In this document: piece by piece, positions 1 through 14,764 of the stretch
Numbering within the stretch: position 1 is the stretch's first letter
Layout: each line of letters starts with the position of its first letter
Source of the DNA: Pyrodictium abyssi
Lineage (GTDB): Archaea; Thermoproteota; Thermoprotei_A; Sulfolobales; Pyrodictiaceae
Assembly (NCBI RefSeq): GCF_036323395.1
Contig: NZ_AP028907.1
Coordinates: forward strand, 1,950,001 to 1,982,000
Direction: 5' to 3'
DNA length: 32,000 nucleotides
Translations under genes and position numbers: made by a program
Notes under the pieces: model-generated
Databases searched by the model: none
What the model was told of the DNA's origin: nothing
Seen by the model: only the letters and a program-made list of their open reading frames with translations

Positions 1-1959
1 GTCCGGCGCAACCGAGACCACCGCCGAGCCGCCCGGAAGCCCGCTGAGAGCCCGCTTGACCTCCTCCGCGAACTCCTTGTCCACGGCAGCGAGCACGTCC
101 ACGTCGCGGGCGTCGGCTACGGGGAAGAACACCTTCACCAAGGTGTTCGTGAACATGCTCCGCAGAAGCACATCCGGGACCTGCCGCGGGTGCTGGTGAG
201 CCATCACGAGGACCACGCCATACTTCCTGGCCTCGCTGAGAACCGTGTCCACCACCTCGGGGATAGCCTGCGCCACGTTCTGGAACTCGTCCATAATGAT
301 GTACACCGGGGTCCGCTTCTTGCCGAGGAGAGCCCGCTCCAGCGCCCAGAACCAGATGCGGAGCACCACCATGGGTATGAGCAGCCTGAGAAACTGCTCC
401 CCCAGCACCTTCGGCAGCCTCAGTATCAGCAACCCGCCGGGCTGCAGCACGGTGTCGAGGTCCAGAGTTGACTCGGAGGTCATCGCACGGAGCAGCTTAT
501 TGTTACGGAAAGGCTCCAGCCTCGAGAAGACACCGAAGAAGCTGTCCTCGCTCATGTCCCTTAGGAGTTCGAGCTGGTGGCGCCACTCCGGGTCGTCGAT
601 CGGCAGGTCTAGCTCCTCGCGGTACAGCGCCACAAAGGTGTCGTAGAGGTCGGCGAGCGTCACCCTGCCGCCGAGCCGGTGGTACATGTAGCGGAGCACG
701 ACCTGGAGAAGGTACTTGATGCGGACACTCGTCCCGCTTAGCTCCAGCACCTTCTCGAACAGGTCCACCAGGTGGTCCGTGGCTATGTCATAGGCTTGCT
801 CCCTGTCGCGGAGGCGAGGCGGCTCCAGAGGGTTGAGGCTGGCGAGGAAGGGCCTCTCCCCGTCGTCGGTCTCGTAAACGGGGTCCACTAGCCAGACGCG
901 CTCGAGGCTAGGCAGCGACTCCAGGATGTCGTAGGAGACGTCGCCGTGGGGGTCGATGAAGACTATAGCAGCGTCGCTCTCCTCCCGGAGCCTCAGAACG
1001 AGGTTCCAGAGGAACGTCGACTTCCCGCTCCGGGTGCGGCCCACCACCCAGGTATGGAGCATCTGGCGCAGGGGAACGCAGTACTCCTTCCCGTCCAGGG
1101 TCTCCCCGAACCGGATACACTTCTCCCGCGGCTTCACCCGCGGCGTTATGCTCGGCAGCTCCCCGCCCCGGGCAAACTCCACGAAAGCTGAGACCTCGTC
1201 CGGTCTCGGCAACCTCACAAGATGCATGAAGCTCTCCTGTGGTATCCACGGGTACTCCTTCTTCGGGGAGAACCGGCCCATGAGGCTCATGGGGTCCCTT
1301 AGCTTGGAGGGGCTCCCCCTCCGGGAGACCTTCACCTTGAGTGCGGGGGTGAAGAGGCCCGCAGCCCTCTCCCCCAGCTCCCTAGCACGCTCCTTATCAT
1401 TGGTGTAGAACCTGACTGCTGTTATGTAGATGCGCTTGGTGCTCAGCTGGGAGAGGTGCCGGGCCATGTCGGGGTCCTTCTTATGGTACTCCAGGGGGCC
1501 TAGCCCCTTGAGCTCGGGGCGCTCGCCTAGACGGTAGTGCCTGGCCTTCTTGGCCAGCTCCCGGTGGGTCCTCGCATCGTAGAAGCCGACTATCTGCACC
1601 GCCTCGCCGGGCTCCAGCCAGTCGTAGACCGAGAGCCAGGCCTCGCTAGCCTCGACCCCCGTCTCCCAGGCGCCGCTCGGCGCCCTTAGCTCGGCCACCC
1701 ACTTCTGGGGGAGCTCCGGGGGCTCCTCGAGCAGCTCCACGCTCGCCCGGCGCCGCAGCAGCGGCAGCGCAATGTCGCGTATCCACGCGTAGAACTCGAT
1801 GCGGTCCTCGAGCCGGTGAGCCTCCAGCACCACGTGCGGGCTCAGGGAGACCAGCTGGGCGAACTCCCTCTCGTAGCCGAGACGCGGCTTCAGACGAACC
1901 CAGCCCACGTAATGGGTGCCCCCGAGAACCCGGCTCCTCTCAACATCCCTCCTGCCCAA
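1..1959 (-). CDS. FtsK/HerA-superfamily P-loop ATPase (T4CP TraG/VirD4/TrwB-like or DUF87-like); C-terminus runs off the left edge
   Basis: Hand translation of the minus frame (codon low coordinate = 1 mod 3). Walker A 'WVVGRTRSGKST' at ~1015-1050. 'AIVFIDPHGD' at ~934-963. 'SLNPLE' at ~823-840. Walker B 'YIIMDEFQNV' at ~274-303. 'ARKYGVVLVMAHQHPRQ' at ~181-231. The frame is open from position 1 up to a stop at 2104-2106. The only start codons are TTG 1957-1959 and GTG 1906-1908; the first ATG is at 1465-1467. It is absent from the ORF track because it is truncated by the window edge. Confidence 0.75.
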   Translation of the reverse strand, partial: MGRRDVERSRVLGGTHYVGWVRLKPRLGYEREFAQLVSLSPHVVLEAHRLEDRIEFYAWIRDIALPLLRRRASVELLEEPPELPQKWVAELRAPSGAWETGVEASEAWLSVYDWLEPGEAVQIVGFYDARTHRELAKKARHYRLGERPELKGLGPLEYHKKDPDMARHLSQLSTKRIYITAVRFYTNDKERARELGERAAGLFTPALKVKVSRRGSPSKLRDPMSLMGRFSPKKEYPWIPQESFMHLVRLPRPDEVSAFVEFARGGELPSITPRVKPREKCIRFGETLDGKEYCVPLRQMLHTWVVGRTRSGKSTFLWNLVLRLREESDAAIVFIDPHGDVSYDILESLPSLERVWLVDPVYETDDGERPFLASLNPLEPPRLRDREQAYDIATDHLVDLFEKVLELSGTSVRIKYLLQVVLRYMYHRLGGRVTLADLYDTFVALYREELDLPIDDPEWRHQLELLRDMSEDSFFGVFSRLEPFRNNKLLRAMTSESTLDLDTVLQPGGLLILRLPKVLGEQFLRLLIPMVVLRIWFWALERALLGKKRTPVYIIMDEFQNVAQAIPEVVDTVLSEARKYGVVLVMAHQHPRQVPDVLLRSMFTNTLVKVFFPVADARDVDVLAAVDKEFAEEVKRALSGLPGGSAVVSVAPD

Positions 1960-1970
1960 GCCCGGTTCCC

Positions 1971-1987
1971 CCGCCCTAGTAGGGCGG
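1971..1987. promoter_or_regulatory. perfect 17-bp palindrome CCGCCCTA-G-TAGGGCGG just upstream of the ATPase start
   Basis: Read directly: ccgccctagtagggcgg, 8-bp arms with a 1-nt centre. It lies in the divergent region between the ATPase (minus) and the small plus-strand ORF at 2052/2100. Confidence 0.4.
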
Positions 1988-2099
1988 GCCGGGAGAAGTG
2001 GAGCTGCAAGACCGTCTCCCCGCCCCGGGCCTCTAACCGGGGGAGGACCCGATGCCGGCGCCAGCCCCGGGCCTCGAGGAGCTCTTCTCGCAGATAGCC

Positions 2100-2315
2100 A
2101 TGGCTATCAGCTGCGCGCTCCACCCTGTGTCGACACTGCTAGCCCGGGCAGGGGTATCGGGCCCGGGCCTCGAGGGCCTCGACACCGCGGCCTACGCCAT
2201 GCTGGCGTGGCTCCTAGGCTCGAGGGAGAGGGAGGGCGTGAAGAAGGCGGGCTTCGTGCTGGCGGTCCTTCTCGCGGCGCTGGCGCTGCTGGAGCTCAGC
2301 CTAGCGTCAGGCTAG
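2100..2315 (+). CDS. hypothetical small protein with hydrophobic segments (possible membrane protein)
   Basis: ORF 2052..2315 with an internal ATG at 2100. The C-terminus 'AGFVLAVLLAALALLELSLA' is hydrophobic. It is divergent from the ATPase. High GC makes chance ORFs common, so support is weak. Confidence 0.3.
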   Translation: MAISCALHPVSTLLARAGVSGPGLEGLDTAAYAMLAWLLGSREREGVKKAGFVLAVLLAALALLELSLASG

Positions 2316-2496
2316 AAGGAGAGGGGGTTGAAGGCCCCGCTTCACGACAATCCACGGGGCCCGGGCCGGCTCACCCCCAGGGTCCCCGGCCCGTCATGCT
2401 CCTCGGGGGCGGCAGGGGCGCCCAGGGGCGGGGGCGGCAGCCGAGGCTCAATTCTACAGCTATATGCGCTGCGGGATAAACGCTGCGGAGCGTGGG

Positions 2497-2793
2497 CTAG
2501 CCCGGCTCTAGGGCCAGGAGCAGCTTCTCGGTAACGACAACCTCCAGCTCCTCTCCGAGCTCCTCCACGTAGACCCTCCGGGTGCCCGTCATCCTGCTGC
2601 ACATCTGGTGCCACGCCGAGGCGTAGTCGCTGCATCTGTAGCCGCTGGCCTCCAGCTCCTCTAGTCTCTCTATGAAGGCCTCCCTGGCCTCCTCCCACTC
2701 CTTGTAGCGCCGCTCCTCGATGGGCTGCGCATGCCATGGGTCCTCGCTGAGGACCCTGTAGAGCTTGACAACATAGGCCGCGGCCATGGCCAT
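2497..2793 (-). CDS. hypothetical protein (98 aa), mobile-element orphan
   Basis: The ORF has a balanced, charged composition ('EERRYKEWEEAREAFIERLEELEASGY'). It lies 6 nt downstream of ORF 2800..3006 on the same strand. Confidence 0.5.
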   Translation of the reverse strand: MAMAAAYVVKLYRVLSEDPWHAQPIEERRYKEWEEAREAFIERLEELEASGYRCSDYASAWHQMCSRMTGTRRVYVEELGEELEVVVTEKLLLALEPG

Positions 2794-2799
2794 GGCTGG

Positions 2800-3006
2800 T
2801 CACCCTAGCCGGGCTATCACCACCATCCTCTTCGCCGGCCGTACCATGGCCTGCCACATCCCGCCCTCCTGGTCCTCGTATACTAGGGTGTCCCAGCCGC
2901 CTCCGTAGAGCCGGGCATGCAGCGGAGCCCGGTCCATGAACACCACCCTGAAGCCCAGCCTGGTGAACCGGGCTACTAGCTCCCGGAGGGTCTCGGGCGC
3001 CTGCAT
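2800..3006 (-). CDS. hypothetical protein (68 aa), mobile-element orphan
   Basis: The ORF has a plausible composition. It is the first gene of a two-gene unit that is divergent from the AbrB-like gene. Confidence 0.45.
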   Translation of the reverse strand: MQAPETLRELVARFTRLGFRVVFMDRAPLHARLYGGGWDTLVYEDQEGGMWQAMVRPAKRMVVIARLG

Positions 3007-3146
3007 GGCTGTCTGCCTCCGTGTCTGCTGCTGTGTCGCTCGCCGCTAATAAGCTTGTCGCTCGACACTGGCGGGCAACACTGATATACTCTCTGTCGTG
3101 CGGCACTAGGGGTGGGGGTGCCTGGGCTGTGCCCACGGGCAATAGG

Positions 3147-3317
3147 GTGAAGGTGAGGAGGGGGCGCGGCGGCGGGGGGAGAGAGTACTACTTCGTGACC
3201 ATCCCGAAGCCTATCGCGCAGGCCCTAGGCCTAGAGCCCGGCAGAGTACTGGAGGTACGGGTGGAGGCGCGGGGAGGGAAACAGGTACTAGTCCTAGAGC
3301 CCGTCGACGAGGCCTAG
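3147..3317 (+). CDS. AbrB/SpoVT (swapped-hairpin) family DNA-binding protein
   Basis: The C-terminal part of ORF 3021..3317 reads 'YYFVTIPKPIAQALGLEPGRVLEVRVEARGGKQVLVLEPV', matching the SpoVT-AbrB pattern (hh.IPk.h...lgl..Gd.v.v...). The likely start is the in-frame GTG at 3147. AT-richer TATA-like stretches (ctaataagc, gatatact) lie upstream. Confidence 0.6.
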   Translation: MKVRRGRGGGGREYYFVTIPKPIAQALGLEPGRVLEVRVEARGGKQVLVLEPVDEA

Positions 3318-3568
3318 GCGGGCACCGGTACCCGCTTCCTCTCCCGGGCCTCGGTCTCCTCGATGTAGCGCTGCTCCCACTCGCTTGTCGGGTCCATGCC
3401 CCTCTTCTCCAGCTCGACTATAGCCATGAAGAGTATGCTGTCTACCTCGCCGGGCTCTACGCCCGGCGGGCAGTCGCCGTGCTCAGCGCACTTCCACGCC
3501 TCGTAGAGGCTGCCTATGCCGAGCCTCCGGAGCTCCCGGAGAGCCTCCTCCACGTACCCGGGCTTCAC
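3314..3568 (-). CDS. hypothetical protein (84 aa)
   Basis: Part of ORF 3314..3643. The preferred start is GTG at 3566-3568 ('VKPGYVEEALRELRRLGIG...'). It overlaps the TGA of the upstream ORF as GTGA. Its stop shares a CTAG with the convergent AbrB gene. Confidence 0.5.
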   Translation of the reverse strand: MKPGYVEEALRELRRLGIGSLYEAWKCAEHGDCPPGVEPGEVDSILFMAIVELEKRGMDPTSEWEQRYIEETEARERKRVPVPA

Positions 3569-3822
3569 GCTCCCCTCACCTCGCGGTAGAGCCGGGGCCG
3601 GGGGCAGAAGACTAGGCTCCACCCGGCCACATGTATATGCCATGCTACCCGCCCCTTACACGCCTTATGCATGTGCCTATCCACGCCGAATCGGCGCCGG
3701 AGCACCACGAGTAGTAGCCGCCACCTCCGGGGCCGGGTGATGGACAGCTTGACGTGGAGCTCTAGGAGCCCAGCTAGCCCAGCCTGCACAGCGAACCCCC
3801 AGCGCCACGCCGCCGCCCGCAT
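3565..3822 (-). CDS. hypothetical Arg/Trp-rich small protein (85 aa)
   Basis: ATG at 3820-3822 inside ORF 3565..3930. A TATA-like TTTTTATA (minus strand, 3882-3889) lies ~60 nt upstream. There is a GTGA stop/start overlap with the next gene. The composition is odd, so confidence is low. Confidence 0.3.
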   Translation of the reverse strand: MRAAAWRWGFAVQAGLAGLLELHVKLSITRPRRWRLLLVVLRRRFGVDRHMHKACKGRVAWHIHVAGWSLVFCPRPRLYREVRGA

Positions 3823-3881
3823 GATAGCCCTGGGGCGCCCCACAGCCCCCGGCCCACAAACACCCCCGGGAAGAGACACCG

Positions 3882-3889
3882 TATAAAAA
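3882..3889 (-). promoter_or_regulatory. TATA-box-like element (TTTTTATA on the minus strand)
   Basis: The plus strand reads gtataaaaacc. This is the only strong A/T box in the area and sits ~60 nt upstream of the ATG at 3822. Confidence 0.35.
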
Positions 3890-4545
3890 CCTGTCGAGCG
3901 ACAAAGAGAGAGACACCCAAAGAAGCACACCGGGGAAAGAACCCCCTCCCCGTCGACACACTACAACTATAACATGTATACCATACAGAAAGAATACTTT
4001 GTAGTATTCTAGGCCCGGATTGCCTCCCACCGCGTGATTGCCGGGAACTCAGGCGATAGACTCCCGGCCCCGTGCAACTCCACATGCCTCTCCTCTGCAG
4101 ACGGGCTAACAGCTGCTAGCTCGAGGAGAACAGGTAAGCTCGGCAGCTGACTCGATTACGTGGGCTTACCCAGCGGTTAGGCGATATTATGGCCGGCCTA
4201 TGTAGCCTCAGGCGATAAGCCCCGGCCATAGGAGCGGTGGTGTCTGCACCAGGCCGATACTATTCTACTCTCCATATAGGATCCCGGGGAGAGCTCACAC
4301 CCCTCGACAACATAGAATAGTTCCGGCCCAGGCCTTGCGGAGAGAATAGATTCATCCACCATAGTTCTGGAATCGGCTTACCGGGACGGTTTAAAGAGAA
4401 TCGGTTAGGTGCGAGACAGGCTACAGGCTATGAGGAGGGGGCGGGTGCATGGAACTGTTGGTATTACCCATGGCGAGTGGTTAGCGATTGAGAGAAAAGA
4501 TAGTATTACCGTTTAACCAATTGTGCATAGGGGGTCTAGGACGCC
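3890..4545. repeat. ~650-bp non-coding, AT-richer, repeat-dense region (candidate replication origin, iterons or regulatory hub of the element)
   Basis: No credible ORF. AGGCGATA occurs at 4051, 4179 and 4210, with the variant AGGCCGATA at 4251. The three exact copies are each followed by CCGGCC within ~5-6 nt. GGCTTACC..CGGTT occurs at 4163 and 4375. AGAATAG occurs at 4314 and 4343, with an inverted copy at ~4261. GTATTACC occurs at 4461 and 4503. There is a perfect inverted repeat AGAATACT-ttgt-AGTATTCT at 3991-4010. Confidence 0.6.
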
Positions 4546-5148
4546 TCAGGCGCGGGTCATGGCCTCGACTTCGTGTAGGGTTATGTCTACGGGTCCTAGC
4601 CTGGAGGCTAGGAGGTAGAGGACGCGTAGCAGCTCGGCTAGCTCGCCGTAGGCCTTGGCCTCCTTCTCCCTGAGGCTCTGGATTAGCCCCCGTAGCCTCT
4701 TCGCCAGGTAGCCCCGTAGCGCTCCTAGGACCTCCTGCGGGTGTCCTAGGGCTACCTTGTTCCTCCGGGCCCTCCTCCTGGCTGGCCCGGTGACCCGGGC
4801 CCGGGGCGACGCCGTCACGACGGCTACGAAGGTGTCCCGGGCTGGCGGGGCCCGCTGGGCCACGTACCGGCGTAGCCGGAGAACCTTCGCCGCGACCCTG
4901 CTCCAGGTCAGTGGCCGGGCCTCCTCCGTGGTGGAGTAGACTGCGACCACCAGGGGGGCCGAGGCCGGGAGCTCTATCTCGACGAGGTAGGCCCTCCTAT
5001 CGCTACTTCCCTCGTCGAAGCGGTAGCGGAGCTCCAGCCCCAGCCTCTCACGCACAAAGCGGAGAACACGGGCAAGAACAAGCCTAACAACATTATACGC
5101 CCCGAGCGCTAGGTTCATCCTCTCCTCGCTCCACCGCTCCCCCGCCAC
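4546..5148 (-). CDS. hypothetical protein (200 aa), last gene of the long minus-strand operon
   Basis: The ORF starts 4 nt after the upstream stop. It has a basic central stretch, 'RARVTGPARRRARRNK'. I recognise no family. Confidence 0.55.
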   Translation of the reverse strand: MAGERWSEERMNLALGAYNVVRLVLARVLRFVRERLGLELRYRFDEGSSDRRAYLVEIELPASAPLVVAVYSTTEEARPLTWSRVAAKVLRLRRYVAQRAPPARDTFVAVVTASPRARVTGPARRRARRNKVALGHPQEVLGALRGYLAKRLRGLIQSLREKEAKAYGELAELLRVLYLLASRLGPVDITLHEVEAMTRA

Positions 5149-5152
5149 GGCT

Positions 5153-5392
5153 TTACACCCTCTCCTCGGCGCAGTATACGACGTGGCCTCTCCTCTGCAC
5201 GCGCTTCCAGAGCCTCCCCGTGTACTCCACGAGAGTATCCTGGACCTTTCCGCGGCCCACGTCCACGCCCATGGCGCGGAGCGCCTCCGCTATCTCCCGG
5301 GGCCTCATACAGCCAGCGCTGCGGAGCAGCAGCCACACCATGCCCGCTATCACGTCCCGGCTCAGCCCCCTCCGGAGCAGCACCTCAACCAT
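5153..5392 (-). CDS. small winged-helix/HTH DNA-binding protein (79 aa)
   Basis: Internal ATG at 5390-5392 of ORF 5153..5422. 'MRPREIAEALRAMGVDVGRGKVQDTLVEY' resembles an HTH recognition unit followed by a wing. It lies 7 nt after the stop of the TGT-like gene. Confidence 0.5.
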   Translation of the reverse strand: MVEVLLRRGLSRDVIAGMVWLLLRSAGCMRPREIAEALRAMGVDVGRGKVQDTLVEYTGRLWKRVQRRGHVVYCAEERV

Positions 5393-5399
5393 GGCATAC

Positions 5400-6332
5400 T
5401 CACCCCTGCGTGAGCAGCTCAACCATGCGCTCTAGGAACGTCGCGAAGTAGACGACCCTCATGCCCCCGTCCTTCGCAGACCACAGGTACGGTACTCGAG
5501 GAAACGTCCAGGTCTTGCTGTCCCACGAGCCGGGCGGCAGCCTCGAGGAGACGGCAGCGTCCAGCGGGGCGCCGAAGAGGTGGAGGTGGAGCCTGTCCAG
5601 CCCATGGTCTTCTAGGAGCCTTCTCGCCTCCTCTACGGCGTGTATCCACGCCCGCTTCTGCCGCCCGGCTAGGAGCTTCAGGCTGCCGAGCGCGACTACC
5701 CCGTACTTCTCCACGATACCGGTCTCTGCCAGCCATGCTAGGTGCTTAGAGTGGCCTGTATCCCTCGAGGCCTGCGCGACCGGTATCCATGGCAGCTCGG
5801 GGTGCTCGGCTAGCAGCCGCTCCTGCAGCCTCATGGTGTGCTCCACGTTGCCCTCAACGGTGGCCGGCACGTCGGGCATCACGACGCGCCACGAGAAGCC
5901 ATGCCTCCTAGCCAGCAGCCTCGCCCTGTCGACGCTGCTCCACAGCGTGTCCCAGAACCTGTCGCTGTACTCCGCCGTCTTCCCGTTGAACCAGTCCATG
6001 ATACCCACGTCGAGGACCACACTAGAGGGCCTCGCCCCCAGCCCCCTCATGTTCTCCAGTAGCTTCTCGAGCACGTCAATGCTCTTCACCGGGACGAGTA
6101 TCCAAGGCCACAGCGGCACCGGCGGCAGCGTGTAGTAGGCGAGCCGGTTCCTCGCCAGCGCCAGCACGGCCTTGATTACCGTCTCCACAGCGCCTCCATG
6201 GATAATTCCCACGTCGGGATTATCCATGCGCCTCATGTGCCGGGGCCCAATGCCCAGTAGGCGCCAGAGGCTACGGTACGCGGTAACATAGGGCACGCCC
6301 AGGCTGGCGGCTATGCTGCGTAGGCTGGTCAT
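5400..6332 (-). CDS. N-terminal HTH fused to a TGT-superfamily (tRNA-guanine transglycosylase / DpdA-like) TIM-barrel protein
   Basis: Start taken at the ATG at 6330-6332, an ATGA overlap with the upstream gene. The longer track ORF adds an Arg/Pro-rich leader that is probably not translated. HTH: 'LRSIAASLGVPYVTAYRSLWRLL'. Five segments fall in the canonical TGT order:
- 'VLDVGIMDWF' (cf. TDSGGFQ)
- 'VVMPDVPAT' (cf. MAFDECTP)
- 'WIPVAQAS' (cf. FGIVQGG)
- 'YGVVALGSL' (cf. GYAIGGL)
- 'LHLFGAP...GSWDSKTWT' (cf. YLMGVG...DMFDCV.PT)
No CxCxxC..H zinc motif is seen. Confidence 0.55.
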   Translation of the reverse strand: MTSLRSIAASLGVPYVTAYRSLWRLLGIGPRHMRRMDNPDVGIIHGGAVETVIKAVLALARNRLAYYTLPPVPLWPWILVPVKSIDVLEKLLENMRGLGARPSSVVLDVGIMDWFNGKTAEYSDRFWDTLWSSVDRARLLARRHGFSWRVVMPDVPATVEGNVEHTMRLQERLLAEHPELPWIPVAQASRDTGHSKHLAWLAETGIVEKYGVVALGSLKLLAGRQKRAWIHAVEEARRLLEDHGLDRLHLHLFGAPLDAAVSSRLPPGSWDSKTWTFPRVPYLWSAKDGGMRVVYFATFLERMVELLTQG

Positions 6333-6640
6333 GGCTCCTCGGCCTCCCACCACGTCTCTCCGAAGCTGTCTGGCACGCCGGCCTCCCGGAGCGCCTCGGC
6401 GAGCAGGCGCGCGGAGGGGCCGCGGCACGCGCCGCCCTCGCACAGCGTGCCGTCGCTGGCCTCTATGCGGCAGCGCCACGTCTTGAAGAAGCGGCACTCG
6501 GCGCGCACAACCAGCCCCGCCGCAGCGTACACGGCGCGCGCCTCGCAGCCGCCGCCGGCTACACGGTGGTCCACGGTGTGGCGGAGCACGGGCACACGCC
6601 GGTCCAGCGCCCCCGCGAGCTTGCGCAGCGCCTCAGCCAC
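6329..6640 (-). CDS. hypothetical 5-Cys protein (103 aa)
   Basis: The ORF overlaps both neighbours (8 nt upstream, 4 nt downstream), consistent with operon membership. It contains 'ECRFFKTWRCRIEASDGTLCEGGAC'. Confidence 0.5.
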   Translation of the reverse strand: MAEALRKLAGALDRRVPVLRHTVDHRVAGGGCEARAVYAAAGLVVRAECRFFKTWRCRIEASDGTLCEGGACRGPSARLLAEALREAGVPDSFGETWWEAEEP

Positions 6641-6929
6641 GGCCCATCCGCCTCATTCCCCTCGCTCTGCCCTCCTCCAGTAGCTTCCTCAGCTCCTCGG
6701 CCCTGACCGCTGTGCACTCGTCCATGCACGTCTCGGGGTCGCAGTAGTCGCAGCTCCTACACTCCACGTCGCAGATGCTCCACGCTACCAGCTCCACGGC
6801 CCTCTCCACGGGCAGCTCGTCGAGGGCGCTGCCGAGGACCAGCACCAGCCTGCCCAGCACCATGGGCGCCGGCAGCCCAGCCATGCTGTTGGCGAGCCTC
6901 TCCGCTAGCACCGCCCCGTGGCCCGCCAC
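6633..6929 (-). CDS. hypothetical Cys-cluster protein (98 aa), possible metal or Fe-S binding
   Basis: 'CDVECRSCDYCDPETCMDEC' has six Cys spaced Cx3Cx2Cx2Cx4Cx3C. It lies 16 nt after the stop of the DUF5591-like gene. Confidence 0.5.
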   Translation of the reverse strand: MAGHGAVLAERLANSMAGLPAPMVLGRLVLVLGSALDELPVERAVELVAWSICDVECRSCDYCDPETCMDECTAVRAEELRKLLEEGRARGMRRMGRG

Positions 6930-6945
6930 CCTCCATCACCCCGCC

Positions 6946-7599
6946 TCACAGGAGCTCCTGTAGCTCCGGCACTCTACGGAGTGGCTCGAGGACTCGGGGC
7001 AGATCGCCGAGCCCGAAGATGGTGAACCTCACGAAGACCTCGTCTGGCCAGAGGTTGGTGAGCCTCCTCGCCTCCCGCCAGAGCGTCATGTGCTTCCGGG
7101 GGAGGAAGAGCACTACCCGCTCTAGGCCCCGTGCGGCGAGCTCCTCCACCACGTCGCGGAGCGTCTCCACGACCAGGCCCCGTAGCAGCGGGCGCTGGAG
7201 GACCTCATCGGGGTGGAGCTCGTAGCAGCAAGCGGGGTAGGTCTCGGCCCGCTCATAGGGCACCAAGAGTAGCAGGTCGCTGAAGTAGAGCCATTCTATC
7301 CCAGCGGGCCTGTCCACGTCGCTGCTCCAGAGCCCGAGGCGGCGGAGCAGCCCACGTATCTTCCGCGATGTGGGGCTCCTGGTGTAGGGCTTCACGCTAG
7401 AGCACGGCGTTACGAGGGCCACGGGGCTCCGTGGCCTGTACTCCCTCCGGAGCCACTCCCACCAATCCTTCACCGCGGGATGCTCGAATGCGCGGGGCCC
7501 CGCCAGCCTGGGGTCTAGGCCGTTATGATGTCTCGGGGGCCACCGGCCGTCCTCCTTCCGGACTACGTACCTGTAGCCACGCTTCACGGTCAGCGCCAC
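6946..7599 (-). CDS. stand-alone DUF5591 / ArcS (archaeosine synthase) catalytic-domain-like protein
   Basis: Start taken at the GTG at 7597-7599 ('VALTVKRGYRY...'). 'FEHPAVKDWWEWLRREYRPRSPVALVTPCSSVKPYTRSPTS' matches the ArcS signature PC-x3-KPY-x2-S-x2-H, except that the final His is Ser. The downstream 'LLLVPYERAETYPACCYEL' resembles the DUF5591 'VP.E.e..YPa..Yd' segment. Confidence 0.6.
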   Translation of the reverse strand: MALTVKRGYRYVVRKEDGRWPPRHHNGLDPRLAGPRAFEHPAVKDWWEWLRREYRPRSPVALVTPCSSVKPYTRSPTSRKIRGLLRRLGLWSSDVDRPAGIEWLYFSDLLLLVPYERAETYPACCYELHPDEVLQRPLLRGLVVETLRDVVEELAARGLERVVLFLPRKHMTLWREARRLTNLWPDEVFVRFTIFGLGDLPRVLEPLRRVPELQELL

Positions 7600-7709
7600 C
7601 GCCTCTCCCTCCTCTCCATCCTCTTGACGTGGACGACAGTGTAGACGATGAAGGGGAGCACGAGGAGCTCTAGGAGAAACAGGGCGAGCGGGTCCAGGGC
7701 TACTGTCAC
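7590..7709 (-). CDS. candidate 39-aa single-pass membrane micro-protein
   Basis: GTG at 7707-7709 overlaps the TGA of the upstream gene (GTGA). The translation is 'VTVALDPLALFLLELLVLPFIVYTVVHVKRMERRERRWR', a hydrophobic helix with a basic tail. It ends 10 nt inside the next gene. It is below the 60-aa cut-off of the track. Confidence 0.3.
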   Translation of the reverse strand: MTVALDPLALFLLELLVLPFIVYTVVHVKRMERRERRWR

Positions 7710-7969
7710 CCCAGCCTGAGCGCCATGACGCGGTGCATCTCCGGCCCCATAGCCCCATGGAAGGGTTCGGCCACTGCCTCGCAGCCAGTAGCCTCCATGA
7801 CCGCCCTCTTCACGAGCCTGGCTACCACGTCGCAGTCGCTGAGCCTCTGCGGTATGGCACCCATGGCTAGCAGCCCCTTCATTATCTCCTCGAGGTCCGG
7901 CACCGTCCTGCCACTGCAATCCGTGATGATAACCTGCAGCAGGCACTGCCCCACCACGAACAAGGCCAC
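7706..7969 (-). CDS. hypothetical protein (87 aa)
   Basis: The ORF has a GTG start at 7967-7969 and lies 3 nt after the stop of the upstream micro-ORF. Its composition is plausible ('DLEEIMKGLLAMGAIPQRLSDCDVVARLVKRAV'). Confidence 0.45.
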   Translation of the reverse strand: MALFVVGQCLLQVIITDCSGRTVPDLEEIMKGLLAMGAIPQRLSDCDVVARLVKRAVMEATGCEAVAEPFHGAMGPEMHRVMALRLG

Positions 7970-7972
7970 GGC

Positions 7973-8110
7973 CTAGCCCTCCTCTTCGCACTTCACGGTG
8001 GCCGGGACGATGACGCTGCTGTAGAGCCACTCGAGGAACACGGCTCTGGCATCCTCCACGTTCTCCGCGACGACCTGGCTCTCGACGCGGCAGCGGTAGA
8101 GCCTCGCCAC
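7973..8110 (-). CDS. candidate 45-aa micro-protein
   Basis: GTG at 8108-8110, 4 nt after the RHH gene stop. The translation is 'VARLYRCRVESQVVAENVEDARAVFLEWLYSSVIVPATVKCEEEG', with TAG at 7973-7975. It exactly fills an otherwise empty gap in the operon. Confidence 0.3.
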   Translation of the reverse strand: MARLYRCRVESQVVAENVEDARAVFLEWLYSSVIVPATVKCEEEG

Positions 8111-8114
8111 CGTG

Positions 8115-8333
8115 CTACACCTCGACCTCAAAGACCAAGGCTCTAGAATCGTGGCGGAGGACGGTGGGGCTGTGGCGAGGGCGGCGCGGCAGGGGCAGGC
8201 CCTGCTCGCGGAGGTACCGCTCTATTGCTTCGCGTATGACCTCGCTCCTCGTGACGTGCTGAGCCTTGGCCACCTGGTCAAGCTCCTTTACTATGCACTC
8301 GTCAACCTTGAACGTGACTACACGCATCGGCAT
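8115..8333 (-). CDS. ribbon-helix-helix (CopG/Arc/MetJ-type) DNA-binding protein
   Basis: 'RVVTFKVDECIVKELDQVAKAQHVTRSEVIREAIERYL' is the classic RHH pattern of a beta strand followed by two helices. Confidence 0.65.
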   Translation of the reverse strand: MPMRVVTFKVDECIVKELDQVAKAQHVTRSEVIREAIERYLREQGLPLPRRPRHSPTVLRHDSRALVFEVEV

Positions 8334-8338
8334 GGCTG

Positions 8339-8827
8339 CTACCCCGTTTTCGCGCCCCAGTATGGGTGGGCGTACTCTGCGGGGACCCGGGCGTAGGCTA
8401 GGATGAGGGCCGCTGCCACTGCAAGCTTATTGTCTTGGCCATAGCACTGCATCTTACAGTCAACGAGCGCGCCGGTGTTCTTGGCTCTTAGCTCTGCCTG
8501 GCAGCCCTTGTAGTCGTATATGCACTGTATGCCTAGCACATAGCTCTTGGACCTGGCTATCACTCTCACATCGTATGTGCCGGCTTTCTTCGTGACCTGC
8601 GGCTTTTCGCCTAGGATTAGCTCGAACGCCTTCACGAGCCTCTCGGTGTCGATACAGCTTATGCAGCCCGGCGGCACGTAGAAGAGTATGCTGCCGCCGA
8701 AGGCCCGCGCGTCTGGCAGCTCCTCAACCAGCTTAGCGGCCTCCTCGCCCAGCAGCCTAGCTACACGCTTCCGAGCCTCCCGCCGTTCCTCCACAACCCA
8801 GTCCAAGCCCATAGCCACACTAACCAC
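8339..8827 (-). CDS. hypothetical Cys-containing protein (162 aa)
   Basis: The ORF lies 3 nt after the upstream stop and 5 nt before the RHH gene. I recognise no family. Confidence 0.5.
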   Translation of the reverse strand: MVSVAMGLDWVVEERREARKRVARLLGEEAAKLVEELPDARAFGGSILFYVPPGCISCIDTERLVKAFELILGEKPQVTKKAGTYDVRVIARSKSYVLGIQCIYDYKGCQAELRAKNTGALVDCKMQCYGQDNKLAVAAALILAYARVPAEYAHPYWGAKTG

Positions 8828-8830
8828 CCC

Positions 8831-9136
8831 CTACGCGCAATCAGAAGAAGCAAAGGACTCCGGAGAGCGGAGCAGAGACTCGACATCACTCTCAAGAAGC
8901 CTTAGACGCGGTAGGAGCTCGGAAACAGGGACACCCTCCCCGAGCTCCTCCTGCAGCTCAGTAAGCCTCACGAGAAGCCGGCACGCCGCGGCCACAACGC
9001 GGGAGCAGCGACTCCTATAAGCCAGGTCCGCCACACGGTTCTTGAGAAGACGTATCCGGGCCTCGAGCGCCTCCACAGGAAAAACTATATGGTGAGACGC
9101 CCTCTTACCCACAACCACAGAGGCTCCCACAGACAC
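8831..9136 (-). CDS. hypothetical coiled-coil-like protein (101 aa), first gene of the operon
   Basis: GTG start. It has heptad-like Leu/Arg/Glu repeats ('EALEARIRLLKNRVADL', 'LVRLTELQEEL'). A ~390-bp non-coding region lies upstream. Confidence 0.45.
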   Translation of the reverse strand: MSVGASVVVGKRASHHIVFPVEALEARIRLLKNRVADLAYRSRCSRVVAAACRLLVRLTELQEELGEGVPVSELLPRLRLLESDVESLLRSPESFASSDCA

Positions 9137-9208
9137 CTTGGCCCCTCCGGGCCCCCGTGGGGCACAGGTGCCCCCGGGAGGCCCACAAATTGGGTAGGGA
9201 CACTACCG

Positions 9209-9216
9209 ATTTATAG
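9209..9216 (-). promoter_or_regulatory. TATA-like box (CTATAAAT on the minus strand) upstream of the 12-gene operon
   Basis: The plus strand reads gatttatagc, ~75 nt upstream of the start at 9136. Confidence 0.3.
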
Positions 9217-9444
9217 CTTGCTCTGGAGACCATAGACTGGGCTCCTACATGCTATGTTCCGCTTGGGAGTGGCTAGGGGCTGCGGCTTCTCTGCTGCACG
9301 GTGCCCTGCTAGTCTTTTCTTTGAGTCCGGCCGGAAACGCAAGGGGAGTTTAATGGGCCGCGCCAGCCTTTTCTTAGAACCGGTAGGGTGCCGGGCAGGG
9401 TTTATCAGGGAGTCTTCTGCCTGTCAGGCACATAGGGGAGCTAC

Positions 9445-9466
9445 GCGTAATACACGTATATTACGC
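9445..9466. promoter_or_regulatory. 22-bp near-perfect palindrome GCGTAATA-cacgta-TATTACGC (candidate operator overlapping a TATA-like box)
   Basis: Read directly. The arms are perfect 8-bp repeats and the spacer contains ACGT. It lies ~65-80 nt upstream of the 9529/9544 start. Confidence 0.45.
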
Positions 9467-9543
9467 CCCAGGCTGCCCGGGCCGGCATTTTCGGAGAAGC
9501 CTCGTCACCTCCGATATGCGTCTCCCCCGTGGGTGCCGGTTTG

Positions 9544-10071
9544 ATGGCTGCGCGGGTCTGGCTCACGCCCGAGGAGTGGGCCCTACTCATAATTGGGCTC
9601 GCCGGCAGCGAGCTCAGAGGAGCGACTACTCTACAGAAGCTGGGCTTCCTCGGCGTAATGGAGGCTGGCGGCGAAGGCCTCGAGTACGTGCCGTGGAAGT
9701 ACGGACCCTTCAGCGAGGACCTACACGAGGCGGTTAAGCAGCTGCGTCGCGAGGGCCTCCTCAAGCGCCATGTTGTGTTCGAGAACAGGATGCTCTATAC
9801 AGCCACGGTCTACGTCTACGAGCTGACCCCCCGGGGGGAGGCCGAGTTTCGCAAACTCCTCCGCCGGCTTGAGAAGGAGCACCCTGACTTCCTCCGCAGG
9901 ATGAGGGAGATAGTTGAGGAGTGGAAGGACAAGCCGTTCCACTTACTCTACTACGTCTACAAGCGCTACAAGGACTGGACATACTTCAGCGAGATAAGAG
10001 ACGAAGTAATGAGGCTAGGAAGGCTCCTCGAGCGTCAAGGCGAGCGCCAGAGCAAAACTCGCGGAAGCTAG
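9544..10071 (+). CDS. Panacea (SocA/DUF4065)-like domain protein followed by a winged-helix-like region
   Basis: 'TTLQKLGFLGVME...EYVPWKYGPFSEDLHEAVKQLRREGLL' matches the Panacea core (LqKLlY..., W.yGPv...ly..l). The alternative start is GTG at 9529. Confidence 0.5.
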   Translation: MAARVWLTPEEWALLIIGLAGSELRGATTLQKLGFLGVMEAGGEGLEYVPWKYGPFSEDLHEAVKQLRREGLLKRHVVFENRMLYTATVYVYELTPRGEAEFRKLLRRLEKEHPDFLRRMREIVEEWKDKPFHLLYYVYKRYKDWTYFSEIRDEVMRLGRLLERQGERQSKTRGS

Positions 10072-10690
10072 GAACCTCGCTTGCCTCGCGATAGCCTAGA
10101 ACCGTGTAAACTCTTCTAGCACGCTCAAACAACATGTTGCAGACATCTTTTCTCATATCCTCGCTCCTCCATCCGATAGCTACCACTAGGACAATCATTG
10201 CTATGAGCATTCCTGCAGTTATGGTCTCGAGGCTTAGCAGTCCTTGTGGAAAGTTGCGTGGTGCTTCGTTGATCATGTACGCTGCAAGGTTGGCTAGGAT
10301 TGGCGGGGCTACACTAAGAAGGACACCATGTTGTATAGTGGGGAGTTGTTGCGTTCTCTCCACGATTCTACCGCTTAGCCTGTATATTTCGCCAATACTC
10401 TGTTGAAGCTCTGCACGAAGATTTTTCAAAACCTGCATATAAAGTGCTTGGTCCTCTTCTGTGCTCGCCTCTACAGTGCTGCGTGGTGGGTAAGGTACAG
10501 AGGTAGCGATGTTATTGTTGAGACCAATTAGCTCTGCAAGTTTGGTTTCCAGGACATCGGCGTCCTCGCTGTCAAGTTTAGACTCAAGATCATGAATGCG
10601 CTCTCTAAGCTTTACAGCCCTATACATGAGTATTCCAGTGACGGAGGATGCAGCACCTCCCAGAAGGGTTGCTAAAAAGCTAAACGGCAA
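9986..10690 (-). CDS. membrane protein with an N-terminal TM helix, a coiled-coil and two further TM helices (234 aa)
   Basis: 'FSFLATLLGGAASSVTGILMY' (TM). 'KLRERIHDLESKLDSEDADVLETKLAEL' (coiled-coil). 'GVLLSVAPPILANLAAYMI' and 'ITAGMLIAMIVLVVAIGW' (TM). Local composition is lower in GC. It lies 12 nt downstream of the AbrB-domain gene. Confidence 0.55.
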   Translation of the reverse strand: MPFSFLATLLGGAASSVTGILMYRAVKLRERIHDLESKLDSEDADVLETKLAELIGLNNNIATSVPYPPRSTVEASTEEDQALYMQVLKNLRAELQQSIGEIYRLSGRIVERTQQLPTIQHGVLLSVAPPILANLAAYMINEAPRNFPQGLLSLETITAGMLIAMIVLVVAIGWRSEDMRKDVCNMLFERARRVYTVLGYREASEVPSFREFCSGARLDARGAFLASLLRLLSR

Positions 10691-10702
10691 CCTAGCAACC
10701 CT

Positions 10703-11155
10703 CTAGGCAGGCTCAACAACTATCCGAGAACCCTCGATACGGATACGGACAAAGAGAGGCTCTCCTAGCGCTTCATACACCCATTTAGGAATCGGGATAC
10801 GCAGTGAACTCTTACGGTCGCGACGCACTTTAACATCGCCATTCTCATATACTGGTTCATAGATAGCTCTCTTTGCCTCTGTGCGAACTTTGTACTCGCC
10901 GTCAGGCAAAGACGCTCTTACATAAACCGCGTAGATGCGGCCATAGCGGGAAACTTTCCTCACGATTTCTTCTTCGCTTGCCGTGGGTCGTATTCGGGCT
11001 TCTACCTCCTTTAGGGCTAGTATTCTTTCATGGGGGGCTAGGCCACGCAGAATGTCAAGTATGCTGTCAACTGCTCTTGCTACACTTAGACTCATTTCTT
11101 GTGCCCCCGGGGTTTTAGCATCCCGGGGTATGACCTTTTGTGCTTCGGTGGCCAT
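10703..11155 (-). CDS. protein with a C-terminal AbrB/SpoVT/MazE-like swapped-hairpin domain
   Basis: The C-terminus reads 'SLRIPIPKWVYEALGEPLFVRIRIEGSRIVVEP'. The N-terminal ~110 aa are unassigned. An internal alternative start is 'MSLSVARAV'. Confidence 0.55.
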   Translation of the reverse strand: MATEAQKVIPRDAKTPGAQEMSLSVARAVDSILDILRGLAPHERILALKEVEARIRPTASEEEIVRKVSRYGRIYAVYVRASLPDGEYKVRTEAKRAIYEPVYENGDVKVRRDRKSSLRIPIPKWVYEALGEPLFVRIRIEGSRIVVEPA

Positions 11156-11215
11156 GAAAAGACCCCTTCGCGTGAACTTAGGGTCGAAGATGAGGGGGAA
11201 GGCCCGCAGCTGGGG

Positions 11216-11291
11216 TGGAGCCGCCGCCGGGATTCGAACCCGGGACCTCCGCCTTACCAGGGCGGCGCTCTGCCGGCTGAGCTACGGCGGC
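11216..11291 (-). tRNA. tRNA-Thr (anticodon GGU), CCA encoded
   Basis: The reverse complement GCCGCCGTAGCTCAGCCGGCAGAGCGCCGCCCTGGTAAGGCGGAGGTCCCGGGTTCGAATCCCGGCGGCGGCTCCA folds as a 7/4/5/5-bp cloverleaf. The anticodon loop is CUGGUAA and the T-loop is TTCGAAT. There is no intron. Confidence 0.9.
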
Positions 11292-11432
11292 ACGCTCCAG
11301 TGCTACCGGCTCTACCCGTGGTCCCGGGTAAATCCCTTACGGCTCCATGTCGCGTGGCTTGTCTGATTGGGCTACAGTAGCAGTATTATTCCGGTAGAGC
11401 CTATCCGCCCTTCCCCCGGGGTGCTGGGTAGA

Positions 11433-12434
11433 ATGAGCTACAAGCTGCCAAAAGCGCTTGTAACGACGGTTGTCGGTAGCTACCCTAAGCTGCCGGAGGC
11501 CGAGCAAGCTATCCAGAAGAGGAAGCATGGCCTCGTGAGCGAAGAGGAGTTTCACGAGCTCGTCAAGCCCGCTATAAAGGCTGTGGTTATGGACCACATT
11601 GAGGCTGGTGTGGACGTCATAAGTGATGGCGAGCAAGCGCGCGAGGACATGGTAGTGTACTTTGCCGAGAGGCTGGGTGGCTACAGGAGCGGCGACTGGG
11701 TCCGCATATTCGATAACGTGTACTTCCGTAAGCCCGTGGTGGCCTCCCGGCTGAGCTACATAGCCCCGATGGCTGTGGCTGACTGGGAGTATGCGAAGAG
11801 CGTAGCCCAGGGTAGGCCTGTCAAGGCTATAATAACTGGCCCCTATACTATGGTTGACTGGAGCTTCGACCTCGCCTACGGTGACCGCCGCGAGCTAGTA
11901 CTGGAGATGGCCCGGGTGCTACGCCACGAGATAGAAGAATTCGCGCGCCGAGGCGCCGAGTTCATACAAGTAGACGAGCCAGCTCTATCAACTAGGCCCT
12001 ACCGCGAGGAGGCCGAGCTCCTACGCGAGGCCCTCGAGATAATGTTCAAGGGCATCAGCGCCAAGAAGATCATACACATATGCTTCGGCAGGATAGAGAA
12101 GATACTACCCTATGCCCTCGACTTCCCCGTGGACCAGATAGACCTAGAGTTCAAGAACAGTAACTTCCGCCTTCTACCATACCTTAAAGAGTACGGCTTT
12201 GACAAGGAGCTAGGCTACGGCGTAATAGACGTGCACAGCACCCGCATAGAGAGTATAGAGGAGATAAAGAACGACATCTACCGGCTCATAAAGATGGACA
12301 TCATACCGCCAGAGAAGATATACATAGACCCCGACTGTGGTGTTAAGAGGCTCCCACGCGAGATAGCGAAGGCAAAGCTACGTAACATGGTCAAAGCGGC
12401 GCGCGAGGTACGCCGCGAGCTAGGATACGAGTAG
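11433..12434 (+). CDS. metE: cobalamin-independent methionine synthase, short archaeal MetE C-terminal-domain type (COG0620)
   Basis: '[10 protein letters not shown]', '[10 protein letters not shown]', 'IIHICFG' and 'DPDCGVK' (zinc-ligand motifs). ATG at 11433 is preferred over the track start at 11367. Confidence 0.8.
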
Positions 12435-12625
12435 CCAGCCCCTGAACAACAACGCGTGGTGCACCATAGTCTTTCTCATTCCTTATGTTTTACCGCAGCA
12501 CCGCGTTCTCCTCTGCAGCCTGGGAGCCAGGAGCCACCACCAGCAGCGTAGAGGGTATTGGCTTATGCTATGGTATGCGAGTGTGATGCCGTGACAACGG
12601 CCAAGGGTAAACGAGGGATGCTGTC

Positions 12626-13840: not shown

Positions 13841-13928
13841 CCAGTAGCCCGGCTACAATAATACGTAGCCAAGCTGCTACCGATACCAGGTTTGGCCTCC
13901 GCTGTGCATCGTCGGCATTAGCAGTGTT

Positions 13929-14378
13929 TTAGACAGCCATAGCCTGCTTTAGCCTAGCTATTTTGGCTGCTAACCAGTTGGCTAGCACGGGGCACGTAGT
14001 TGGATCGAAGAAGCCCCCGTTATGGCAGCGCTCGAGGTTCTTGCAGCTGAAGCACGGTACCTCTATCACGCTGCCTATCTTTATATCGATAGTAACTGCT
14101 TGCTTTGAACGCTTGGCTATGAAGAGCTTGTATGTGCGCCTGCCTTTGTGTACTGTTGGCTCACGTGTTATGAGGCCCTTCTTGAGGAGCCTTAGAGCCA
14201 GCCTCGAACCTTCTCGGCTGTCAAGACCTAGGGTTTTCCATAGTTCGTGCTGGTAGATGCCCTCGTCTCCATGGGCCTTGATTATCTCGAGAGCCTTTGC
14301 CTCGAGGTCCTCGAGGCTCTTCTTCTCGCCGACGGAGGGCTCGATAGCGGCTGCCAAGGCCTCTAAATCCCCCACCAT
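13929..14378 (-). CDS. winged-helix protein with a C-terminal 4-Cys motif; candidate TFE-beta (RPC34/hRPC39-like)
   Basis: WH region: 'IYQHELWKTLGLDSREGSRLALRLLKKGLITRE'. C-terminus: 'CFSCKNLERCHNGGFFDPTTCP' (Cx2Cx5Cx11C). It neighbours the TFB gene. Confidence 0.5.
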   Translation of the reverse strand: MVGDLEALAAAIEPSVGEKKSLEDLEAKALEIIKAHGDEGIYQHELWKTLGLDSREGSRLALRLLKKGLITREPTVHKGRRTYKLFIAKRSKQAVTIDIKIGSVIEVPCFSCKNLERCHNGGFFDPTTCPVLANWLAAKIARLKQAMAV

Positions 14379-14764
14379 GCACCGGTTCTACATTTGTGAT
14401 TGTTGGTATTCTCCCGGGGTGCCCGGGTGGACACCATGACTTTGTGTATGTCTGGGCTGGCCCTATAACCTTATCCCAATCTGGTTCTACGGTTTACCAT
14501 GCTCAGAGCATAATGAAGCAGCATAAGGACCGGTCTATAAAATCGTTGTGTAGCTAAAGAGAGGCTAGGCCAAACTATAGGAGTACAACAATAATAGGAG
14601 AACGTAGCCAGGGCAGCAGCGTGTTAGAGATAGAATCCTGAGGTATATGATCAGGAGTAGTGGAAAATGCTAACAGTATTATGCCCGGCAGCCGTGAAAA
14701 CAAGTCATGCCCAAAAGCTACGTGAGGCCACATATCGCGTCAAAGTGTTTAATGCGACTACTGT

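Follow-up and report, generated by a model that had tools for sequence, protein, structure and literature searches.

Archaeal conjugation is poorly understood, and members of the Pyrodictiaceae grow near the upper temperature limit of life. On the 3′ side of a tRNA-Thr(GGU) gene, the chromosome of one of them, Pyrodictium abyssi, carries a GC-rich block that holds part of a large ATPase gene, several small regulators and a tightly packed operon of mostly short genes. What is this block a part of: a conjugative plasmid, a provirus or the chromosome itself? The stretch analyzed here, referred to as the window, comprises 32,000 nucleotides (positions 1,950,001-1,982,000 of a single contig of 2,224,219 bp, NZ_AP028907.1; the genome coordinate minus 1,950,000 gives the window coordinate). 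The original prediction, made from the letters of the window, took the block for the tRNA-proximal part of an integrated conjugative-plasmid- or provirus-like element with its distal end, integrase and second attachment (att) site left of the window. A direct repeat, an integrase and an empty site in a congener bear out this view, and window 1-11267 is very probably the tRNA-proximal third of a complete integrative and conjugative element (ICE) of 35,465 bp, which belongs to the pNOB8-type lineage and resides in tRNA-Thr(GGU) (Table 1).

Boundaries, target gene and relatives of the element

The tRNA-Thr(GGU) gene is intact (ARAGORN; Rfam tRNA model, 72.6 bits), and its 3′ end faces the block as predicted. 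A whole-genome search with pieces of this tRNA recovered a perfect 74-nt direct repeat, composed of the 3′ 52 nt of the gene and the 22 nt past its end; one copy overlaps the tRNA gene (attR) and the other lies 24.2 kb left of the window (attL). The element delimited by these two perfect copies, which start at genome positions 1925729 and 1961194, is therefore 35,465 bp long. Next to the far copy, with its end 16 nt inward of attL, lies an intact open reading frame (ORF) for a tyrosine integrase of about 300 aa. It matches Phage_integr_3 (PF16795; 30.3 bits, cut-off 27), and a small local comparison gave a weak similarity to the pNOB8 integrase (25% identity, 143 aa aligned, E 8e-5). Both items that the original prediction had placed to the left and proposed to look for there, a direct repeat of the tRNA 3′ portion and a tyrosine or SSV-type integrase, were thus located. 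A split integrase of the SSV type was considered and rejected: when the ends of the element were joined in silico no ORF ran across att and the integrase was whole, so integration leaves it unsplit. Indeed, the att site lies outside the integrase ORF with the stop codon 16 nt away, which is the pNOB8-type (non-partitioning) arrangement.

On both sides the element is bordered by ordinary chromosomal genes, coding for MetE on the right and for an L38e-like protein on the left. Genomes are labeled here as G000 (the present P. abyssi genome), G001 (a congener), G002 (P. delaneyi) and G008 (a metagenome-assembled genome, MAG, of the Pyrodictiaceae). In the congener the site is empty, the L38e-like gene and tRNA-Thr/MetE being contiguous with flanks 114 nt apart, which answers the presence-or-absence comparison suggested earlier for related strains. 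Strong homologs of the coupling-like ATPase of the element were found in only 5 of 40 related genomes. Two of these five carry whole sister elements, P. delaneyi (38,804 bp, bounded by a 48-nt repeat of tRNA-Val(CAC)) and the MAG (35,335 bp, bounded by a 52-nt repeat of tRNA-Asn(GUU)); both have the gene order of the P. abyssi element and an integrase just inside the distal repeat. Identity is mosaic, with 65-83% in the window-side operon and 25-41% in the transfer module for the P. delaneyi element and the opposite distribution for that of the MAG, which fits recombining mobile elements. A search of genome contigs with narrow VirB4 patterns returned only the G008 record and distant bacterial VirB4s.

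Composition had been one of the first arguments for an integrated element. The local GC step is real (65.0% in window 1-9200 vs. 55.5% in window 11300-32000; genome mean 59.2%), but it carries little weight as a sign of foreignness: the percentile rank among genome windows of equal size is only 90 for the block, 59 for the whole element and 25 for the right flank, and part of the contrast therefore stems from a low-GC neighbor. The tetranucleotide usage of the element is no outlier either, so that the composition profile proposed as a check confirms the step and not an outlying element. GC content alone is poor evidence here, the element as a whole being compositionally ordinary for its genome.

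A 24-nt tRNA-like match located 1.4 kb left of attL was considered as the remnant of an older att site and rejected, as it belongs to an intron-containing tRNA-Pro(CGG) gene. This gene (genome 1924280-1924405, minus strand, 49-nt intron) was missed by default ARAGORN and by Rfam and was found in the intron mode of ARAGORN.

Table 1. Features of the integrated element and of its target gene, from left to right (g, genome coordinates; w, window coordinates).
Feature	Coordinates	Strand	Basis or remark
attL	g 1925729-1925802		perfect 74-nt direct repeat
Integrase	g 1925815-1926708	-	Phage_integr_3
Conserved 104-aa protein	g 1928399-1928713	-	
626-aa protein with class III-like signal	g 1928904-1930784	-	
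106-aa pilin-like protein	g 1930850-1931170	+	
T2SSE ATPase	g 1931185-1932798	+	PF00437, E 3.9e-22
T2SSF-like 654-aa membrane protein	g 1932653-1934617	+	PF00482, 25.8 bits, above cut-off
294-aa protein	g 1934706-1935590	+	weak helix-turn-helix (HTH) match
134-aa type IV pilin	g 1935782-1936186	+	class III signal
107-aa TrbC/VirB2-family pilin candidate	g 1936223-1936546	+	
ORF with two transmembrane (TM) segments, in VirB3 position	g about 1936527-1937080	+	
VirB4-like ATPase	g 1937023-1938891	+	
Exported 485-aa protein	g 1938885-1940342	+	
774-aa polytopic membrane protein	g 1941428-1943752	+	
Low-GC cargo	g 1943749-1948082		includes DUF5131 protein at g 1945364-1946383
Coupling-like ATPase, continuing into the window	g 1948453-1951959	-	window part w 1-1959
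Small genes: 87 aa (TM), 98 aa, 68 aa, AbrB/MazE-type regulator, 84 aa, 92 aa	w 2052-3843		
AbrB/MazE-type regulator	w 3129-3317	+	E 3.6e-7
200-aa and 79-aa proteins, operon end	w 4546-5392	-	81% and 68% identical in P. delaneyi
DpdA-like TGT-superfamily transglycosylase, 310 aa	w 5400-6332	-	AF2 model, hhalign, homologs
Small Cys-rich proteins of 103 and 98 aa, encoded between the DpdA-like gene and the ArcS2-like one	w 6329-6929	-	77-84% identical in P. delaneyi
ArcS2-like protein, 217 aa, stand-alone DUF5591 archaeosine-synthase core	w 6946-7599	-	PF17884
Operon head: 87-aa, 45-aa, RHH/CopG regulator, 162-aa and 101-aa genes	w 7706-9136	-	
RHH/CopG regulator	w 8115-8333	-	RHH_1, E 3.7e-10; similar to pNOB8 and pARN3 CopG
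Low-GC right end: 180-aa protein, 234-aa membrane ORF, 150-aa protein	w 9529-11155		weak SocA/Panacea match (180 aa)
Element-specific 234-aa membrane ORF	w 9986-10690	-	
Conserved att-proximal 150-aa protein	w 10703-11155	-	
attR, tRNA-proximal repeat copy	w 11194-11267		perfect 74-nt direct repeat
tRNA-Thr(GGU), integration target	w 11216-11291	-	ARAGORN, Rfam

Putative transfer genes and a candidate DNA-modification pair

Genes were called with a codon model trained on the P. abyssi genome and about 55 ORFs were scanned against Pfam; the T2SSE ATPase gene, missed by the gene caller, was recovered by comparison with P. delaneyi. Most of the transfer genes lie left of the window. The gene cut by the window's left edge codes, in its window part, for the N-terminal 653 aa of a 1168-aa coupling-protein-like (TraG/VirD4, FtsK/HerA-type) ATPase and extends a further 1547 nt leftward. 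Its matches to TrwB_AAD_bind, TraG-D_C, DUF87 and FtsK_SpoIIIE agree with the earlier description of an FtsK/HerA-superfamily ATPase with type IV coupling protein (T4CP)-like motifs. It is 66% identical to its counterpart in the MAG and 44% to that of P. delaneyi. A nuclease- or relaxase-like domain was sought in its C-terminal ~500 aa and N-terminal 280 aa, with no Pfam match at E up to 1 and no atlas match. The VirB4-like ATPase, which also matches PDB 4ag5, shares 33-35% identity over 95% of its length with the TrbE-like proteins of pNOB8, pKEF9, pHVE14 and other plasmids, and the coupling-like ATPase shares 30-33% identity over 56-76% of its length with TraG-like proteins encoded by Sulfolobus conjugative plasmids; a Thermococcus nautili plasmid gave matches to both ATPases. 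Between the two options of the original prediction, the conjugative plasmid is thus favored by full-length ATPase homologs of pNOB8-type TrbE-like and TraG-like proteins, whereas the provirus loses ground, no virion gene being recognised. A local all-protein comparison with pNOB8, pARN3 and the T. nautili plasmid delineated a small shared core made of the two ATPases, the 774-aa membrane protein (weak), the ribbon-helix-helix (RHH) regulator and the integrase (weak); none of these plasmids shares the operon, the VirB2-family pilin or the genes for the type IV pilus.

Two sets of genes are concrete candidates for mating structures. On the one hand, the adjacent T2SSE and T2SSF-type genes are accompanied by class III (type IV prepilin) signals in three proteins (626, 106, and 134 aa); the signal of the 134-aa pilin reads RRLRG before and LSPLVASAILL after the cleavage position, and its Pilin_N match is weak (E 0.004). 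The prepilin peptidase is encoded by the host and not by the element. On the other hand, a 107-aa protein encoded upstream of VirB4 in all three elements combines a signal peptide with two hydrophobic helices forming a hairpin (TM map and alignment), and the secondary structure of its low-confidence model is likewise of the two-helix hairpin type. Its ortholog in the MAG (49% identical) matches the TrbC/VirB2 family (PF04956; 34.3 bits vs. a cut-off of 27.9), and 9 of its 15 database homologs carry this domain. The designed coiled coils that alone came out of a PDB profile search with this protein were discarded as spurious.

In two further genomes, which belong to the same order as P. abyssi, G033 (C4, ~68-72.5 kb) and G034 (C1, ~89.8-96.5 kb), a VirB4-like gene adjoins a short (~640 aa) T4CP-like gene and the other genes of the element are lacking; this pair may represent a reduced or domesticated transfer module.

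Within the operon, a 310-aa and a 217-aa protein form a candidate 7-deazaguanine DNA-modification module. The 310-aa protein had no direct family match, and an exhaustive search yielded 17 homologs, 3 of which match the Pfam family DpdA (PF23859). Its AlphaFold2 (AF2) model is confident (pLDDT 89), with the DNA preQ0 insertase DpdA as best structural match (7ui4; VIA Z 14.7, root-mean-square deviation 3.4 Å, 222 residues), and the top 50 structural matches were all enzymes of the tRNA-guanine transglycosylase (TGT) family. The family profile also matches a TGT-family gene of the host (E 2e-8). In the hhalign alignment with the host archaeosine TGT (ArcTGT; 90% probability), PDVP coincides with the Asp motif of substrate binding and SWDSKTW with that of the nucleophile. 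D108, D154, and D271 are invariant in the 17 homologs; D154 and D271 align to the host motifs by hhalign, and D108 (LDVG vs. TDSG) was matched by eye only. The N-terminus is HTH-like. As for the 217-aa protein, it scores at the threshold of DUF5591 (PF17884; 25.9-26.6 bits, cut-off 26), matches phrog_34505 (E 1e-10) and carries the motif PCSSVKPYTRSPTS, which is conserved in three orthologs. Because the host encodes QueC and TGT genes, preQ0 should be available to such enzymes.

The association of DpdA with ArcS2 is a known signature of 7-deazaguanine DNA modification in the Sulfolobus virus STSV2 and the Vibrio phage nt-1 (Hutinet et al. 2019 and 2023). The present locus resembles them in that a candidate DNA transglycosylase of the TGT superfamily lies near a stand-alone DUF5591 core, without preQ0 synthesis genes of its own; it differs in that the pair, recognised from its genes, is carried by a conjugative element and not by a virus, and in the strong divergence of the transglycosylase, which lacks cysteines and has an HTH-like N-terminus. 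On two metagenomic contigs, genes for distant relatives of the 310-aa protein adjoin T4CP-like and VirB4-like genes, and a pattern search of IMG/VR returned no relative of the family (the alignment of 17 sequences being too diverse for pattern scans, a closer homolog set was used). The pair suggests that conjugative elements, and not viruses alone, make use of 7-deazaguanine DNA modification.

Further genes of these families lie elsewhere. A second stand-alone ArcS2-like (DUF5591) gene, 65% identical at the protein level to that of the element, lies at genome 1398504-1399079 (minus strand) with no copy of the 310-aa family nearby. A 373-aa TGT/DpdA-like ORF (genome 1140384-1141502, minus strand) displays the motifs VDSG, LDYP and SMDSKTY together with a CxCxxC site; it is found beside a homolog of the element's 84-aa protein in a GC-rich stretch (~1132-1147 kb) with CRISPR arrays on its flanks, which may be another mobile element. 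On the metagenome contig Ga0315272_10006892, some 2 kb separate a distant homolog of the DpdA-like protein from a homolog of the DUF5131 cargo gene (56% identical), and the two families may be functionally linked.

Proposed mode of life and competing accounts

Conjugative elements of archaea have been listed only from the Sulfolobales and Nitrososphaeria, with no pilin or relaxase recognised (Beltran et al. 2023, PMC9905601). With the conjugative plasmids of the Sulfolobales (pNOB8, pKEF9, pHVE14, pARN3/4, pAH1, and the pING family) and their integrated copies the present element shares the pair of TrbE/VirB4-like and TraG/VirD4-like ATPases, a polytopic membrane protein encoded beside the one of TrbE type, a regulator of the CopG/RHH type, an integrase left whole by integration, a tRNA gene as target and the lack of a recognisable relaxase. 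It differs from them by its host family, by the small number of proteins detectably common by tblastn (about five) and by the addition of the T2SSE/T2SSF/type IV pilin set, a candidate VirB2-family pilin, recognisable by Pfam through its orthologs, and the DpdA-like/ArcS2-like pair; unlike in these plasmids, no homolog of ParA/ParB or PlrA was found in the element. The ICEs of thaumarchaea reside at tRNA genes and encode VirB4, VirD4, VirB6, VirB3, TadC, FlaI-type ATPases and pilins (Krupovic et al. 2019, PMC6563490). Compared by description, they resemble the present element in their tRNA integration and in their mix of type IV secretion system (T4SS) and type IV pilus parts, a combination that is therefore already known. 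They differ in belonging to another phylum-level lineage living at moderate temperatures and in carrying TFIIB and ParB genes, which were not found in the present element, and the latter has no prepilin peptidase of its own. The Ced and Ted systems of hyperthermophilic Thermoproteota (Beltran et al. 2023, PMC9905601) similarly include a VirB2-like pilin, a VirB4-like ATPase and a VirB6-like membrane protein, and the cleavable signal peptide of the present pilin is like that of TedC and bacterial VirB2. However, these systems are chromosomal, import DNA and have no coupling protein among their described components, whereas the set described here includes a T4CP-like ATPase and belongs to a mobile element that has att sites and an integrase.

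Beside the observed anatomy, homologies, empty site, sister elements and spacer matches stands a proposed mode of life, in which excision, transfer, pilus formation and DNA modification are predicted from the genes. The integrase would recombine the circular form of the element with the 3′ part of the tRNA gene, thereby rebuilding the tRNA, and the element would excise as a circle. Excision and passage between cells have indirect support in the sister elements at different tRNA genes and in host CRISPR spacers related to the element. Its own type IV pilus, built by the T2SSE ATPase on the T2SSF platform from class III pilins cut by the host peptidase, would bring cells together, and a T4SS-like apparatus made of the VirB2-family pilin, the VirB3-position protein, the VirB4-like ATPase, the polytopic membrane protein and the coupling ATPase would move the DNA, possibly with no classical relaxase, in the manner proposed for plasmids of Sulfolobus. 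The RHH protein and the nearby AbrB protein may act as regulators at the window-side operon. Finally, the DpdA-like/ArcS2-like pair probably replaces some guanines of the element with a 7-deazaguanine derived from preQ0 of the host, so that incoming DNA would be protected against restriction. In its most complete form, this view holds that the Pyrodictiaceae elements are active, self-transmissible ICEs at ~100°C that combine their own type IV pilus, a T4SS with a VirB2 pilin and DNA marking against restriction by a Zn-less, HTH-fused DpdA-like enzyme with its ArcS2-like partner; as a whole it is conceivable and rather doubtful.

Several observations weigh against an active, DNA-marking ICE. 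The circular form of the element, its excision and its transfer are predictions from the genome sequence. Pfam scans of the ORFs revealed no relaxase family, and no origin of transfer (oriT) was recognised; no relaxase has been recognised on any described archaeal conjugative plasmid (PMC9905601), so this lack does not set the element apart. The P. abyssi 107-aa pilin has no Pfam match itself and is assigned to VirB2 through its orthologs, and a test of its fold gave a model with a pLDDT of 58 only and no Foldseek match. The VirB6-like role of the 774-aa protein and the VirB3-like role of the ORF with two TM segments are suggested by topology and position. Composition was rejected as proof of foreignness, both GC content and tetranucleotide usage being non-outlying. 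As regards the modification pair, the 310-aa protein is cysteine-free and therefore without the structural Zn site (CXCX2CX22H) that is conserved in DpdA and TGT, and the motif PCSSVKPYTRSPTS of the 217-aa protein agrees with the archaeosine-synthase core PC-X3-KPY-X2-S-X2-H in all but the final H, which is replaced by S, a further difference from the STSV2 and nt-1 systems.

Part of these points would also suit an integrated element of conjugative ancestry that has become incapable of transfer, a fixed island or cryptic element that supplies pili, regulators or DNA modification to its host. The element is known from sequence, no relaxase was recognised, its low-GC cargo segments suggest later insertions, and cryptic ICE-derived elements have been described (Krupovic et al. 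2019, PMC6563490). Such an immobile state is nevertheless unlikely, given att repeats that are perfect over 74 nt, intact integrase, pilin, T2SSE ATPase and both T4SS ATPase genes with zero internal stops, and a complete gene set kept in two sister elements at other tRNA genes. Far less probable is a provirus integrated at the tRNA, the ATPases of which would package the genome and the pilin-like proteins of which would be parts of the virion or of its egress. The integrase family is named for archaeal viruses, STSV2 and other archaeal viruses are known to carry pairs of DpdA and ArcS2, and the same tRNA of P. delaneyi holds another, unrelated integrated element; yet no capsid, portal or terminase family was recognised by Pfam among the ~55 ORFs, the sole match of 10 window proteins to PHROGs is a family of unknown function, the 310-aa family has no relative in IMG/VR, and the core genes are those of conjugative plasmids. 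A domesticated chromosomal DNA-import system of the Ced/Ted type, which would not be mobile, is hardly credible: although the VirB2/VirB4/VirB6-like Ced and Ted sets reside on the chromosome of hyperthermophilic Thermoproteota, CedA1 homologs have been reported from all Pyrodictiaceae and G033 and G034 carry just the VirB4-like and short T4CP-like pair, the att repeats, integrase, empty congener site and different tRNA targets of the sister elements speak for mobility, a coupling-protein-like ATPase absent from the cited Ced/Ted component lists is present, and the locus is the opposite of the syntenic, repeat-free one to be expected in all relatives.

Read as an integrated ICE, the P. abyssi element offers a complete and cleanly bounded example from the Pyrodictiaceae, a family and temperature range for which no report of such elements was found in the literature searched. 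Archaeal ICEs are a known kind of element, and the finding extends this kind and overturns nothing. Since the element has two sister copies and a cultured congener has the site empty, excision and mating are directly testable. If the elements were active ICEs with the three functions named above, they would provide a direct link between plasmid conjugation and the domesticated Ced/Ted systems, and they would be the first conjugative elements, rather than viruses or defense islands, shown to use 7-deazaguanine DNA modification.

Remaining window genes and host spacers

The minus-strand operon running from window 9136 to 4546 is as tightly packed as had been described, with junctions of 3, 5, 4, 3, 106, 16, -8, -4, 7, and 4 nt; it contains 11 called genes, not the 12 first counted. 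Three GTGA/ATGA stop-start overlaps had been reported and two were verified, an ATGA at 6329-6332 and a GTGA at 3565-3568. Both the AbrB and the RHH regulators read from the sequence were recovered by profile matches, and the winged HTH protein proposed at 5153-5392 went unconfirmed, with zero matches in Pfam, PHROGs and NCBIfam. The same libraries gave no match for the 200, 103, 98, 87, 162, and 101-aa operon proteins. Several of the small genes at the left end of the window are conserved in P. delaneyi and in the MAG. At the other end, the 150-aa protein adjoins the tRNA in all three elements and is present in three tandem copies in the MAG (C7:886432-887831). Its C-terminus, judged by eye, looks like a DNA-binding hairpin of the AbrB/SpoVT type, and the protein is a candidate factor for recombination directionality or regulation.

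The host bears CRISPR arrays at genome 615.6-616.6 kb, 1123-1163.5 kb, and 2188.7-2189.3 kb, with two repeat types, one GAATAACTCAATAGAGAATTGTAAG-like and the other CTTTCAGTTCTATTGTTTATGATTC. Among the 130 spacers extracted from them, one of 48 nt agrees with the ArcS2-like gene (window 7437-7464) in 38 of its positions, 28 of them forming an uninterrupted exact core, and a second has a 19-nt exact core in the 774-aa gene; the longest exact match to any of 58 random 35.5-kb genome segments, used as a control, was at most 16 nt. These spacers look like derivatives of related, non-identical elements and constitute indirect evidence that the element family enters cells of the P. abyssi lineage.

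In P. delaneyi, tRNA-Thr(GGU) is occupied by a different insert of 14.2 kb (C1:61501-78500, locus positions ~1206-15489), bounded by a 45-nt direct repeat of the 5′ part of the tRNA; an ORF enters its right repeat and may be a split integrase. Six P. abyssi spacers match this insert near full length (e.g., 43 of 45 aligned positions of a 47-nt spacer, or 44/44 with 4 mismatches), and it is therefore a real invader known to P. abyssi.

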